From sequence record NZ_CP048903.1: a stretch of 39,059 nucleotides of DNA, one strand, 5' to 3'. Each line of letters starts with the position of its first letter. Position 1 is the first letter of the stretch. Positions 18,001 through 24,000 of the stretch are shown piece by piece. Origin of the DNA: a plasmid. Position numbers: made by a program.

Positions 18001-21000
18001 GGCCGCATGGCGGATCAAGCGGCACATCGTTTATGATAGAAAGGGAGATATTTGGACAAAGATCGCAAACTACCATTCCTATACGCCTAAATACAACGCA
18101 ATCTATCGCGCAGCCATCATTCGGTTGGCCGAAAAATGGGAACGGTGGCTTGCCGGTAGGCAAGGGAATAACGCCAAGGGAAATGTTCCCACACAAGCTG
18201 TTCCAGCCGTTCGGACAATTCGGTCGCAACCATTGCCCAAGCAATATGTTTCCCCGACGACCGTCTATGTTCCTAGAACAATCCGTGTGGTAGAGCGTTC
18301 CCCGGAGCCAGAGCCGGAAACCGTCCAAAACTAACAGTAAAGACCATCTGAAAAAGAGTTTCAGACGGTCTTTTATAATTTCCCCTTGACATGGATGGTA
18401 AATTCATGTTTATATCAATTCAATTATTTAGGAGGTATGGAAATGGCTTACGCAATTGCATTTGATTTGGATACGACCGTTTTACAAGAACTTTACCCTA
18501 ATAGTAGCTGGCAAAATGCTTACGGTGATGTAAAAAGAACCTTGGTCGGATTAGGTTTTAACCATCAGCAAGGCAGTGTATATTTTGGAAACTCTGAGAT
18601 TACAGCCGTTAGCTGTGTCTTGGCCGCCCAAAAACTGAGCCAGACCTATGCATGGTTTAAGCCGGCCGTTTCGGATATTCGTATGTTGCGGATTGAGGAA
18701 ATGAACGATTTGCAGCCCGCTTTATAAAGCGATAGGTATCTTAGAAAAGGGCAGCGCGGTGTCCCCGCCCTGCCCTTTCCCTTTCCTTCCAGCGTTGCCG
18801 AGTAAAGGCTGCCTAGTTTCTACTAGGCAGCCCAAACTACTTTGCCTTGCAAGCCCGTTTAACCGTACTTTCGCTAACATTGAAATGTGCGGCCGTCCGG
18901 GAAATACTGGTTTGTTCAGACTGCCGCCATCGGCGGATTTCTTCGGGATCGACTTTCACTTTCCGCCCCAGTTTTTTCCCTTCTTCCCTAGCATTGCGGA
19001 TACCGGCCATTTGACGCTCTTTGATGTAACTGCGTTCCAACTCCGCAAATGCGCTGACAATAGCCAGCATCGCCGTACCTAACGGACTGGCCAAATCGAA
19101 GTTTTCCCGGAGCGAGGTTACGGCCACGCCCTTTTTCTGCAAAAACTGCACCGTCTCCAAAACATCGATGGTATTTCTGCCCAAACGGTCAATGGCTACT
19201 ACGACTACGGTATCCCCTTGGCGTACAAATTCAGCCATCTTACGGAACTCAGGCCGGTTAAGGGCTTTTACTGCACCCGAAGCGGCCTGATCTTCATACC
19301 ACCGTTCGATCTGGTATTTGTCTTGAATAACCTGTCTTTGTGCGGCCACATTCTGCTCTTTGGTCGATACCCTCAAATAGCCGATAATCATAATTCCTCA
19401 AACGGATTAAAAACTCTTGCGCCCAAGTGTGAAAAATCCTTTTCATTGCGCGTTACCACCATCATATGCTCCTGTCCAACGGTCGTCTTCGATAAGCACA
19501 CGGTCAAACTCAATGTCTGCAATATCTACCTCTTCCGGAGGAACGGCCAAGGCATCAGCGATACTCTCCCCCTTACCCAACGATTCTGCTCCTAACGAAA
19601 GGTCATGGGGACAGCCATTCAAAAACGGAGACAACCGTACCTTATAAGCCGGAAAATCGGTAACAAACTTTCTCAGTTTTTCATCAACCATCCTTTGAAC
19701 AAATGGATTGCCTGTCGCTGCCTCGATGTTGTGCAAAATGTCGGCCAAATCTCCGATTATCGTCAAATTATCCAGCGCAGCCGCATAACTCTCAGGCCGA
19801 TACCCGCGCCGGGAATAAGACAGTTCCCTGATAATCAGCGAAATTTCCGTGATCAACCGCATTTTTTCTTTCATTTCCGTATCCCTGCTTATCTGCTGAT
19901 GGATTTTTTGGCGGAATACTCCAAAGACTTGACAATCAATTTGCCCTTATTGCTTCCGATAGAAACGTTCTGCCCTATCTCAACCAATTTGGCCAGTCTT
20001 TCTTCGTTATGTGTTGCATTGTGCCTGACAAGCCCGTTTTTGGTTTTTTGAAATACCGCAGCGGCATCCTTGTAAATGATTTCTCCGGAATAAGTTTGAC
20101 CAGTCTCTGCTTTTTTAGCTTGACCTAGTAAATAGATACCGGCTTTCATGCCTGTTACAGGAATTTGTTCCACCTTAGACCACAACTCGTTTGCTGACTT
20201 TGTTTCTAGGGTAACACCCTTGGAGTTAGTAACTACCCTTTGCTGGGAATACTCTTTTTTGGCGAAAACACTTTCAAGATCCATACTGCCCTTGGCCTGA
20301 TTGAAGCATTCCCGGCTGATTTTTCCTGAGTCGAAGTCGCTCTGGATTTTCTCGGCCAACCTGCCCAATATTTGCTCTTGCGACCCCAAGGAAAGCATTT
20401 TGATGACATCATCGAACTTGTCGATAAATTCACTGTTCCTGTCTTGGTTGATACCGACAATTTTTACCGCATCACCAAACTTATCCCTGATTTGCTTGAG
20501 TCCGTCAGGAAGATTGGCCTGAATATCAGCCATAATACCTATACTGGCTTCCCTGCCGTATTCGTTAAACCGTTTGTAAGTATTGTCGGAAGCCCTTTCA
20601 GCCCTCATGCTGACGGCTACGATAGTAACTTCAAGATTACGCTCCAGACACTGCTCAATCTTGCGAAAAGCAGACTGCGGCCGTGCAAGCTGTCCTTCAA
20701 AAAGCAGCTTGGTGGTATCCTGCATCATCATGTTTTTTACTGTCGAAGTTTTTCCCGAACCCGGAATTCCCGTAACGAAAATAACTTCTTTCTTCTGTGG
20801 CTCGTCGCGTTTCAGTACCTCGTCAAACTGGGTAGAAGATAAAACTGCTGCTGAATTGTGGATGGCATTATTAACCGTTGCCCTGTCTTCTTTGTTCTCA
20901 AAAGCTGGAAACAACTCTTTAAACGTATCAGCACAAACATATCTACCGCCTTCTGTATCTGCATGTTGGCTATATAAAGACAATATCTCGTCTGTTTGTT

Positions 21001-24000
21001 CGGTCGCAAAACGGATGGCCTCATCCTGAACGGAAGACAAATATTCGTTATTGCCAAAATCTCTCAGATTAATATCGCTAGACAGTTTTACCATAACGGA
21101 TTATTGCTCCTTATTTGCCGCCCACAACACTCTTAACTTAGCTAGAAGCTCAGGAGATGGGCCGGCATACAGGCGTTTTTCCACTTCTTTGCGGAAGGCT
21201 TCGTCTGTCATCATCCTGCGGTTTTTTTCGCAAGCCTCTTTTATCATTTTGATAGCATTACTTTCTTGGGGCTCAACTTTATTCATAATAAAATCCTAAT
21301 CTTAATTTTATATTACTCATTATCGCTTCATCGTTTTCTTTACGGAAGCGTCCGATGCTTTGACGGACAACCCATTTCCTTCCCGCTTGATGGAAACTTT
21401 CTGACCAATTTCCACCTGTTCGGACAGACTGGAGAATTTCCCCTCCGACATTCCCTGAACCGCCTTATGGCGTATCAGACCTTGGTCTGTCTTCTGAAAA
21501 ACTGATGCCTCGTCTTTATGGACAATCTCTCCACTGTACTCTTTGCCGGATTCGGCCGGTTTCGCCGTGCCAAGCATGTGAATACCGGCTTTCATCCCCT
21601 TGGCTTCAGCCTTCTCAATATCCTGCCATGTGTCGCCTGATTTGCGTTGCAGTGTTGCCCCTTCTGAATTGGCCACCACCCTTTCCTGACGATAAATCTC
21701 TTCCACACGCTGATAGATCTCTTCCCGGTGTTGCTTTACCTTGTCAAAATAATTTGGAACAGGATCTTGGGAACGCCTGTCTGCCTGAAGCTGTATCACA
21801 TCCCAGACTTGAGCAACCTGCTTCAAACGTTCAGGAGTAATCTGCTGATAAAACTCCATAGCATCTTTGGCACTCGCCTGTTTGTTCTGTTGTTTATTCA
21901 GGCTGTCATACAGGATTTCCCCGGGGCGATTGGTTACGCGGATGCGGTCGAATTCCGCCTCATGAGTTGCAACTGTATTTTTAAATCCCTCAAACGCCTT
22001 ATTGTGAAAATCTTCGTCAACGAAACGCGGTTGGATATTCTTAGTAAGATACTGATCTTCATACCGTTTAAAAATACCGGCCAAACTTTCTTCCGGAGCA
22101 GTCGCAACGGCCAACATTTCGATTTTCAGTCCCGCTTCTCGCGCGGCTTTAATGCTCATGCCTACTGCTTCAGCATTACGGAAAGTTCCTTCTTCCAAAA
22201 CGTTCCGGGAGTTTTCCAATGCCGATTTTCGTACTCCTACAGCCAACTTGCCTGCATCTTCTTGTGTCTGCTGAGACGAATAAACGACTCCAGGAGGAAC
22301 TGGTATTTTTTGCCGCATAATGTCGGCATCAACATGTATATGCCCTCCCTTTGAAGCGAACTCTTCTTTTACGATGTCGGCGGCCTTACTTTTTCCCGCT
22401 CCCGGTTGAGCCGCTACCAAGGCGATCTGCGGCACATCTACCGCCTGTGTAATTTCCAAAAGAGCAGACATATATTCGGCAACAATTTCGGCGCGTCCCG
22501 CGTCGCTTAACTTTTGGTAATCACTCATACAGAACCCCCAACAATCGTATCATTGGGATCCAAAATCCTTGCGATGACATCTTCGTCCGTTGCTCTTAAG
22601 TTATGGCGGAATACTGTAATCGCTTTAATACTATCCGAACAATATTGAATGAATGCTTCATTTGGATGAGATTTTTTCCGCTCCTCTTCTCTAGCCTGAA
22701 TAAACGGTTGGGCGGCATTACCCAAAACCTCTAACGCTACTTCGTAATTGATACCCGGAATTACTTCTTTCATTTTTTGGTTCCCTCCAAAAATTATCCA
22801 CAAATTTTGTTAGTAAGCTGCCCATATCGCCAGCCTGCCACACATAATAAATTGAATCTTCGTCATCAAACCGTTTTTGCCTGCTTTTTAAGCAACATGG
22901 TTCAAAACCTATGTTTGAATAATAAGCCAGTTCAAAATAAATAACAACGTTTTTGACCTATACTTCCAGACCTTAACGAAACATAGTTCATAAAGTACAC
23001 TTTTTGCACCCACTTATCTAGGTTACTCACCTCTTACTCAAGATTTGGCCATTGCCCACCATACCCCATAATGGCTTTAATTGACTCCTGTCAAGCCCAA
23101 AGACTCTCTTTCATGTTTATAATTATAGGATAATTTATCCTACTTGTCAAATAAATTTTAGCCGCTAAATTTTTACTCTCGCTTATTTATTCATTATAAT
23201 AAATTAATTGTTATTCTGCTTAACTGTAAAAATTAACTGTGAGTGATTGGAGACACCATGCCACATGAGCAAATGATTGATGCTTTTTCAGCAATCATTC
23301 AAAACTCCTTAAGCCTATATGAAGAGCAAACTCCGCTATACTACTACCTGACTATCTGCGGTTCTTGGGTTCTGACTGCACTCGGCATCCTCTCCTTGGC
23401 GTCCGTATTCTTTACCATCAAGCAGAAAAAACCATACCGTTTTATCGTCCCGATTCTGTTTTTATGGCTGGGATATGAAAGCATCCACATGCCGCGCCCG
23501 AATCTTGCTGTATTCTACGGATACAACTTGGCGCAGCTTTCCTATCCGGCAAACGAAAATCCCAACTCGTTCCTACATCTCGCAGACGGCTCAAATCCGA
23601 TTTGCTGCTTCATAGGCGAAGACGAGTATTTGCAAGCCAAACGGTTAGGTTTCAAAGAGTATGCCGATGCAAAAGCAAAGGCTTTGGTTGATTTGGTTGA
23701 AATGGAGAAAAAATCCAAACAATCTGATTGAATCTTAAATTCAATAATAACGCGGTAGGGGGCTGGTCAAGCGAAGGTTCAGGCTCTGACTGAAATTTCG
23801 CTTGGACAGGGGGTGTGGGGCGGAGCGCAGCGAAGGGCTACCGCGTGGCGGCCGAAGCCGCCCGACAAACTCCAGTTTGTCGCTATTCCGTTTTCAGTGC
23901 GTAAATACCTTTCCCCACTCTCAGAAAAAACCGCTCGTCCTGTAATACCTGCCTGACTTTGGCCTGCCAGTTCCTGTTTTCTGCCCGCGCAGCGGCATAC

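Follow-up and report, generated by a model that had tools for sequence, protein, structure and literature searches.

In the IncP-1 plasmids R751 and RK2, kfrB lies in the order kfrA-kfrB-kfrC and encodes a protein of the Pfam family PF18790. KfrA and KfrC of R751 are reported to interact through KfrB as a linker, and KfrC of RA3 is known to bind KorB (PMC8124265). It is for R751 only that KfrB has been reported to bind both partners and to contribute to plasmid stability (cited in PMC8124265). For the zeta1 toxin of Neisseria gonorrhoeae, ng_zeta1, UDP-sugar kinase activity and complex formation with the antitoxin epsilon1 have been demonstrated (PMC5923241). Its C-terminal domain (CTD), solved in PDB 6EPG/6EPH/6EPI, was termed an OB fold with no function assigned; a similar domain was stated for an Eikenella zeta homologue only, and no link to kfrB was made (Rocker et al. 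2018). Later papers on the gonococcal toxins do not discuss the OB domain (PMC11964940, PMC10212123). In the current study we analysed a stretch of 39,059 bp from plasmid record NZ_CP048903.1 (the window). It carries zeta1 together with epsilon1, a second zeta gene, the zeta3 allele, and an open reading frame (ORF) of 124 amino acids (aa) to which Pachulec and van der Does gave the name kfrB in 2010 (PMC2848598). The segment common to the products of kfrB, zeta1 and zeta3 is almost certainly the KfrB domain, PF18790. The OB fold without assigned function, in a toxin that is pursued as an antibiotic trigger (NQNO/zeta1), is accordingly the plasmid's own KfrB module. We propose, with a probability of roughly 45%, that this domain serves to dock its carrier, by protein-protein interaction, to the Kfr scaffold of the plasmid. 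Since the genes have been named, one of the products crystallised and the domain entered in Pfam, the bare observation is recoverable from standard annotation. In the searchable literature we found no report that connects the zeta OB fold with kfrB, describes the Zeta, Fic and AbiEii toxins with a KfrB fusion as a class, or treats the kfrB slot as a site of toxin-antitoxin genes.

The two toxins, of 401 and 402 aa with the P-loops GIPGSGKTS (zeta1) and AAQPGAGKS (zeta3), and the 124-aa ORF lie where an earlier note on this DNA had placed them (Table 1), and the single domain that the note saw in all three was recovered by BLASTP. The 124-aa ORF matches aa 276-401 of zeta1 (E 7e-14, 27% identity) and aa 270-402 of zeta3 (E 3e-13), and the two toxin CTDs match each other (E 2e-32, 49% identity); the kinase heads of the two toxins can be aligned at the P-loop only (E 0.37). 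A proper profile method gave the same answer. A hidden Markov model (HMM) built from 102 foreign stand-alone KfrB representatives, excluding window sequences and fusions, was run on the window's six-frame ORFs, 753 in all. Matching in each case over nearly the full length of the model, it gave 119 bits for the 124-aa ORF (E 4e-36), 70.9 bits for zeta1 (E 4e-21) and 70.1 bits for zeta3 (E 7e-21). No further KfrB copy was seen among the 753 ORFs, the next best of which scored 3.8 bits, and the window therefore holds exactly three copies, well beyond chance. Against the gathering score of 25 bits of PF18790 itself, kfrB reaches 42.2, zeta1 29.5 and zeta3 24.4, which is marginally under the threshold. 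The domain is about 115-120 aa long, larger than the 75 aa first estimated, and spans nearly the entire 124-aa protein.

The heads that precede the domain in the two toxins are of known types. Zeta1 differs by one residue from PDB 6EPH chain B across 401 aa and is thus the same protein as ng_zeta1, whose OB fold is the KfrB domain. The Pfam profile Zeta_toxin (PF06414) gives 40.4 bits for zeta1 and 124.8 bits for zeta3, and by profile and Walker A motif both class as members of the Zeta/PezT toxin kinases. A small ORF sits directly upstream of each toxin. Zeta3, with its Zeta_toxin head, Walker A motif and upstream antitoxin ORF, is in this respect similar to the classical epsilon/zeta and PezAT systems of Gram-positive bacteria, but those lack a C-terminal KfrB domain, and the nearest proteobacterial homologues end at about aa 284. 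That the domain is an addition to the zeta kinase fold, as had been supposed, is borne out by the nearest non-Neisseria zeta homologues, which align to aa 1-284 only; the zeta1 structure paper likewise bears out the statement that a C-terminal extension of the gonococcal toxin had been reported with no function. Two recent origins of the toxin CTDs were ruled out. Duplication or gene conversion between them is contradicted by DNA similarity no longer than 17 bp, and derivation from the resident kfrB by an identity to it of 27-29%, when foreign copies at kfr loci share 38-49% with kfrB. Because the gonococcal zeta CTDs share 49% protein identity without DNA similarity, they are old and maintained, not recent copies.

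The AlphaFold2 model of the 124-aa protein (mean predicted local distance difference test score 92.7) contains a three-strand meander (residues 12-38) and then a barrel of six strands (residues 46-113), and this fold is common to the KfrB-family copies. The KfrB domain is a beta-rich unit of a meander and an OB/SH3-like barrel, with a short basic tail that usually ends in Arg. An OB-like barrel could bind nucleic acid or a sugar nucleotide, and so tune the substrate choice of the kinase (for instance the preference of zeta1 for UDP-N-acetylmuramic acid, UNAM) or bind plasmid DNA. We regard this as very unlikely, as the same module is shared by Zeta kinases, Fic AMP-transferases and AbiEii nucleotidyltransferases, three enzymes whose substrates are unrelated, and also occurs on its own, and no sequence similarity was seen between KfrB and characterised nucleic-acid-binding OB families. 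In addition, the zeta1 structure paper describes UNAM and UNAM-4P in the kinase active site and mentions no contact with the OB domain. In structure the KfrB domain is closest, after zeta1, to the OB folds found in Bartonella effectors. In the FIC-OB-BID effectors BepA and Bep1 these share 6-13% identity with KfrB in a match confined to the barrel half, from which homology is not established, and the KfrB profile matched no Bep chain.

The distribution of the domain was assessed with a profile search of 1.84e9 representative proteins, which returned 172 clusters, of which the 152 listed were analysed. A homologue search by word index, with the domain alignment as query, retrieved stand-alone KfrBs only; the fusions came from the exhaustive search of representatives. 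Stand-alone KfrBs of 105-125 aa form the majority of the clusters. An N-terminal head is present in 27 of the 152 (about 18%), comprising 13 Zeta, 7 Fic, 2 AbiEii, 1 LPD7 and 4 unknown heads, compared with the Eikenella zeta homologue alone in the ng_zeta1 paper, and the KfrB domain forms the C-terminal end in 24 of these 27. The full-length Fic::KfrB arrangement occurs in at least 47 plasmid records, including Enterobacteriaceae plasmids of about 40-70 kb. Two of the Zeta clusters, P0043 (522 aa) and P0150 (502 aa), carry two tandem KfrB domains. The main text of the polyvalent-protein paper of Iyer and Aravind (2017) contains no mention of KfrB.

At every kfr locus examined, kfrC lies directly downstream of the KfrB-domain gene, whether this is fused or unfused. 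The order is korB-korF-korG-kfrA-kfrB-kfrC-traM in RP4 and korB-kfrB-kfrC-traM in the window, whilst toxin heads occupy the same slot in pAKD4 (IncP-1delta; kfrA-62aa-Fic::KfrB-kfrC), in the enterobacterial IncP-like plasmid pHS102707 (vbhA-Fic::KfrB-kfrC), in the Eikenella exigua plasmid (korB-vbhA-Fic::KfrB-kfrC) and in two metagenomic IncP-like plasmids, L007 (korB-90aa-Zeta::KfrB-kfrC) and L011 (korB-69aa-Zeta1-type::KfrB-kfrC). The slot, between korB or kfrA and kfrC and near traM, is the same in the window, RP4, pAKD4, pHS102707 and Eikenella. Judged by these gene arrangements, it is often a toxin-antitoxin module that fills the kfrB slot. Fusions are also found in load regions or beside traG, and every fusion context found is a P-type conjugative element. 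On one such element, L009 (8001-12923), an AbiEii::KfrB gene and a gene for a 340-aa X::KfrB protein adjoin a resolvase.

A small antitoxin-like ORF always precedes the fusions, and in the zeta1 structure paper epsilon1 lies on the zeta1 surface as an extended chain in an unusual heterodimer. It could be argued from this that the CTD serves toxin control, aiding antitoxin binding, stabilising or auto-inhibiting the toxin, with free KfrB as an antitoxin-like decoy that titrates the toxins. Such a role seems highly improbable to us, because three unrelated types of antitoxin are used (epsilon, VbhA and an AbiEi-like upstream ORF), because stand-alone KfrB occurs on hundreds of plasmids showing no KfrB-fused toxin, and because the structure paper describes epsilon1 as covering the ATP site.

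A sister of the window plasmid is the Eikenella exigua plasmid NZ_CP038019 (L006), whose KorB and KfrC are 61% and 41% identical to those of the window. It has three KfrB domains, all of them toxin-fused, and one kfrC: its load region carries epsilon-like/Zeta1::KfrB and vbhA/Fic::KfrB in tandem, and its kfr locus vbhA/Fic::KfrB-kfrC (15616-18261 and 37933-39771). The tail of the Fic::KfrB protein at the Eikenella kfr locus has gonococcal kfrB as its positional orthologue (49% identity), the latter with neither vbhA nor the Fic head. The KfrB domains fall into two subfamilies, a kfr-locus type and a load-region type; load-region CTDs are 22-31% identical to kfr-locus KfrBs and 41-66% identical among themselves. 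Many fused tails are nearest to stand-alone KfrBs, and by sequence the fusions are polyphyletic. Unrelated heads can carry closely related tails, with identities of 66-70% between tails of Fic and Zeta1-type proteins and 62% between Zeta and Zeta1-type. Between Neisseria and Eikenella the zeta1 heads are 74% identical but the tails 52%, while the tails of the two Eikenella load-region toxins are 66% identical to each other; by these comparisons KfrB tails track the plasmid more than the head. This pattern suggests that the tails have evolved in concert, or together with a partner specific to the plasmid.

These relationships also bear on whether the domain is simply baggage, acquired when toxin genes inserted ahead of kfrB and were read through, with the fusions then copied elsewhere and the domain doing nothing for the toxin. 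The kfrB slot is indeed a hot spot at which heads come and go, and the orthology of gonococcal kfrB with an Eikenella fusion tail is what such a history would leave. The load-region copies, however, are distant from the kfr locus, keep the full domain and form a conserved subfamily of their own; the age and maintenance of the gonococcal CTDs and the conservation of the terminal tail argue in the same direction, and we consider baggage the least credible of the explanations.

We propose instead a series of interlinked steps centred on docking to the Kfr scaffold. As the plasmid has KfrC but not KfrA, the proposed attachment is to KfrC: the KfrB domains of zeta1 and zeta3 would attach the toxins, or the epsilon/zeta complexes, to KfrC, and via KfrC the toxins would become tied to the KorB/ParB partition complex. 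Free KfrB would take the same site and could thus be a competitor of the toxins or determine how far they occupy it. The domain would in this way serve as an address label that couples post-segregational killers to the segregation or establishment apparatus of the plasmid. Docking is the best-supported explanation because KfrB is reported to be the linker in R751, KfrC binds KorB in RA3, kfrC is invariably adjacent, and each plasmid has three KfrB domains per one KfrC. The homology, the fold, the linkage to kfrC and the recurrent fusion are direct observations, unlike the binding of KfrC by the toxin-borne domains and its consequences, for which we would put the odds at slightly less than even. 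The suggestion of the earlier note that the domain is a modular interaction or tethering element fits the evidence, namely the reported linker role of KfrB in R751 and the repeated presence of the module on unrelated toxins. The shared module offers one testable answer to two old questions, the role of KfrB and that of the zeta CTD, and is relevant to the ways in which resistance plasmids secure their maintenance or establishment.

Several points weigh against docking. Zeta1 is toxic in E. coli, and chromosomal epsilon1/zeta1 in the plasmid-free strain WHO P confers killing by NQNO (PMC11964940); since the chromosomal pair works in the absence of the plasmid, docking is not needed for killing, and post-segregational killing has no obvious need of localisation. 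The load-region CTDs share just 27-29% identity with the resident KfrB and may therefore bind another partner. KfrC was not found in L009 and L010, which carry load-region fusions, but these contigs are incomplete and the result counts for little. Docking alone also leaves unexplained the conserved basic tail ending in Arg and the near-obligate C-terminal position of the domain.

Both of these features would be accounted for if the KfrB domain and its basic tail were an address for a type IV secretion system (T4SS), by analogy with other toxins of conjugative plasmids. The domain and tail would recruit the protein to the P-type Tra/Trb machine, and KfrB and the fused Zeta, Fic and AbiEii toxins would be injected with the DNA, providing immediate addiction or help in establishment. 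Although it is the chief rival of docking, we think this explanation unlikely. In its favour, the domain is C-terminal in nearly all head fusions, and among 136 representatives the last 12 residues carry on average a net charge of +2.5, or 0.21 per residue compared with 0.024 over the 100 residues before them, with a tail charge of at least +2 in 81% and Arg as the exact final residue in 56%. In the window, the tails of KfrB (...KKTLTR), zeta1 (...KKSISR) and zeta3 (...KKTMKR) resemble those of TraI (...VKGRHR) and of the ArdC/primase-like polyvalent protein (...ASRGSR), the two proteins that we take to correspond to the classical IncP protein substrates, and TraI ends in KGRNK, KGRGR and KGRKI in three related plasmids. 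Basic tails are, however, common and weakly specific, as 10 of the 48 large ORFs of the window end in Arg. As a separate observation, KfrC of the window (...GQKIVR) and of six other plasmids also has a KfrB-like tail (e.g. ...LHLSRSIER, ...RLGLSQAR).

The nature of the heads is a further point in favour of the secretion address, as they belong to toxin classes known or proposed as T4SS substrates: this has been shown for VbhT (FIC-BID) and proposed for PezT-BID, and more toxins with short basic signals have been predicted (Harms 2017; PMC5675462). The FIC head of the pAKD4 Fic::KfrB protein is 57% identical to that of the proven substrate VbhT (E 4e-81). The consistently P-type conjugative contexts point the same way, as do the two X::KfrB genes that flank traG and an ArdC polyvalent gene in L010, the Bartonella effector OB folds as closest structural neighbours after zeta1, and the location of RP4 kfrABC in the leading region, where it is zygotically induced (PMC7314908). 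Against this, BID is absent: Pfam scans of both toxins to E=1 give Zeta_toxin, KfrB and P-loop families only. The profile of the TraI-like_C domain (PF22287) shows no significant similarity to that of KfrB (hhalign probability 0.24 over 11 columns), and the region of VbhT past FIC has no similarity to KfrB. R751 kfrB mutants reportedly have a defect in vertical stability, a phenotype that does not require export, and this too counts against secretion. Lastly, IncP TraG did not bind KfrC in a bacterial two-hybrid assay, which was made on KfrC and not on KfrB (PMC8124265).

Two specific homologies were tried and rejected: that of KfrB with the post-FIC region of VbhT (no BLASTP match, hhalign probability 0.13, and a linker in the pBGR3 VbhT that looks helical), and that with the relaxase C-terminal domain PF22287, where hhalign covers the last hairpin only. 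For PF22287, no relative was found in PDB, and a homologue search gave two near-identical fragments. Compared with the VbhT and PezT-BID toxins, the proteins described here are likewise toxins of the FicT and PezT classes from toxin-antitoxin systems of conjugative plasmids that carry a C-terminal backbone module and a basic tail; the module of the former is the relaxase-derived BID, whereas here it is KfrB, whose documented partners are KfrA and KfrC and not the coupling protein. It is conceivable, though we hold it doubtful, that the KfrB domain with its Arg-ending tail plays in IncP-type plasmids the part of the BID signal, acting directly or via KfrC, and that the OB domain of Bartonella FIC-OB-BID effectors is a diverged KfrB inherited from plasmid toxins. 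KfrB would then be injected into mating recipients, and with it a whole class of toxins with Zeta, Fic and AbiEii heads, zeta1 and zeta3 among them.

Some further observations concern the same proteins. The nearest plasmid relatives of the VbhT FIC domain, after the Bartonella orthologues, are the heads of IncP-1delta Fic::KfrB proteins (57-59% identity), and the similarity ends exactly at the domain border, as compared between pAKD4 (L004, 4959-5930) and pBGR3 (L012, 2462-3985); the pBGR3 VbhT also has a basic tail (...SKDVTR). The two KfrB fusions of L010 (1719-9698), proteins of 345 and 565 aa, have unknown heads and enclose traF in addition to traG and the ArdC polyvalent gene. The LPD7 fusion (P0117, 568 aa) consists of LPD7 followed by a C-terminal KfrB, and TraI of the window of LPD7 followed by TraI-like_C; the end-domains are equivalently placed with no significant similarity.

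Regarding the control of the toxin genes, the window contains six exact matches to the KorB operator consensus. One lies beside a perfect sigma-70 consensus promoter predicted to face epsilon3-zeta3-epsilon1-zeta1, and as it is only 7 bp from this promoter, the epsilon/zeta toxins are probably wired into the central KorB control of the plasmid, as judged by consensus matches. The same operator lies within a divergent promoter pair, and KorB could control both promoters. The operator near kfrB had been thought to stand in front of that gene; it is in fact downstream, between the stop of kfrB and the start of kfrC.

Table 1. Positions of the KfrB-domain genes, their regulatory sites and other features in the window (NZ_CP048903.1).
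Feature	Position	Strand	Basis or remark
kfrB, stand-alone KfrB-domain protein	1371..1745	-	PF18790; similarity to IncP-1 KfrB; RefSeq 'KfrB domain-containing protein'
KfrB domain of zeta1, about aa 281-401	19892..20254	-	
zeta1 toxin gene (ng_zeta1), 401 aa, kinase head for UDP-N-acetylglucosamine (UNAG)/UNAM plus KfrB domain	19889..21094	-	PDB 6EPH match; Zeta_toxin
KfrB domain of zeta3, about aa 281-402	21323..21688	-	independent KfrB HMM; PF18790; similarity to zeta1 CTD
second zeta gene, zeta3 allele, 402 aa, canonical PezT-like head plus KfrB domain	21320..22528	-	Zeta_toxin; PMC2848598, PMC10212123
epsilon1 antitoxin ORF, 61 aa	21101..21286	-	directly upstream of zeta1; named in PMC2848598
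epsilon3 antitoxin ORF, 4-nt overlap with zeta3 start	22525..22803	-	ORF; PMC2848598
KorB operator TTTAGCGGCTAAA	1351..1363	.	exact consensus; between kfrB stop and kfrC start
KorB operator beside epsilon/zeta operon promoter	23157..23169	.	exact consensus
sigma-70 promoter TTGACA-17-TATAAT toward epsilon3-zeta3-epsilon1-zeta1	23122..23150	-	predicted; 12/12, 7 bp from operator
promoter facing 162-aa ORF 23243..23731	23172..23200	+	10/12 consensus match
poly-G tract (G7), kfrB leader	1786..1792	-	length differs between plasmids
korB (ParB family)	1927..2844	-	RefSeq annotation; Eikenella KorB 61% identical
kfrC, coiled-coil IncP plasmid survival protein, candidate docking partner	798..1334	-	NF042916; C-terminus compared
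TraI	35060..37453		C-terminus compared
999-aa ArdC-MPTase-DUF5710-Toprim protein	27235..30234		C-terminus compared
TrfA	4906..5784		C-terminus compared
ORF	26732..27226		C-terminus compared

The kfrB gene itself matches 387 plasmid records by tblastn. Its product is 41% identical to IncP-1 KfrB (E 9e-15), within a range of 38-41% for the R751/RK2 family, and as an orthologue it occupies the same slot before kfrC and traM; the gonococcal plasmid differs from IncP-1 in having no kfrA, korF or korG and in carrying two extra toxin-fused copies in its genetic-load region. Comparison with a diverged allele gives a ratio of non-synonymous to synonymous substitution (dN/dS) of 0.19 at dS 0.32, which places kfrB under purifying selection. 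The conserved ATG at 1727 (118 aa) is more likely to be the start than the TTG at 1745 (124 aa). Upstream of it, the poly-G tract is G7 in the window, G13 in pEP5289, G12 in P0001 and G11 in L014, and a poly-C tract at about 1900-1906 on the minus strand is C6 in the window and C7 in pEP5289. In P0001, G12 brings the ATG at 1794 in frame and gives an extra hydrophobic N-terminal extension. Since this upstream ATG reads AAC in L014, the poly-G tract probably lies in the leader of kfrB and not in its coding sequence; phase variation of kfrB has been predicted in a 2025 preprint. Many stand-alone KfrBs of 113-114 aa bear the JGI label 'cell filamentation protein', apparently by annotation transfer from Fic::KfrB fusions.

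Of the two neighbours that the earlier note gave to kfrB, korB holds and the supposed kfrA-like gene is kfrC, whose product scores 169.5 bits with NF042916 (cut-off 99) and is 50% identical to KfrC of RP4. No homologue of KfrA, KorF or KorG was seen in the window by tblastn (best E 2.5). The first 8 kb of the window are 99.9% identical to pEP5289 and similar conjugative plasmids of N. gonorrhoeae. As the second zeta shares just 70.9% identity with the zeta2 carried by tetM plasmids, the plasmid is a markerless gonococcal conjugative plasmid of pConj group I that carries epsilon:zeta3 (nomenclature of PMC2848598 and PMC10212123). A 143-aa ORF (19443..19874, minus strand) published as 'MarR' has no match in Pfam (E<=1) or NCBIfam (E<=0.01); the name goes back to the 2010 annotation and to 28% identity across 27 residues.

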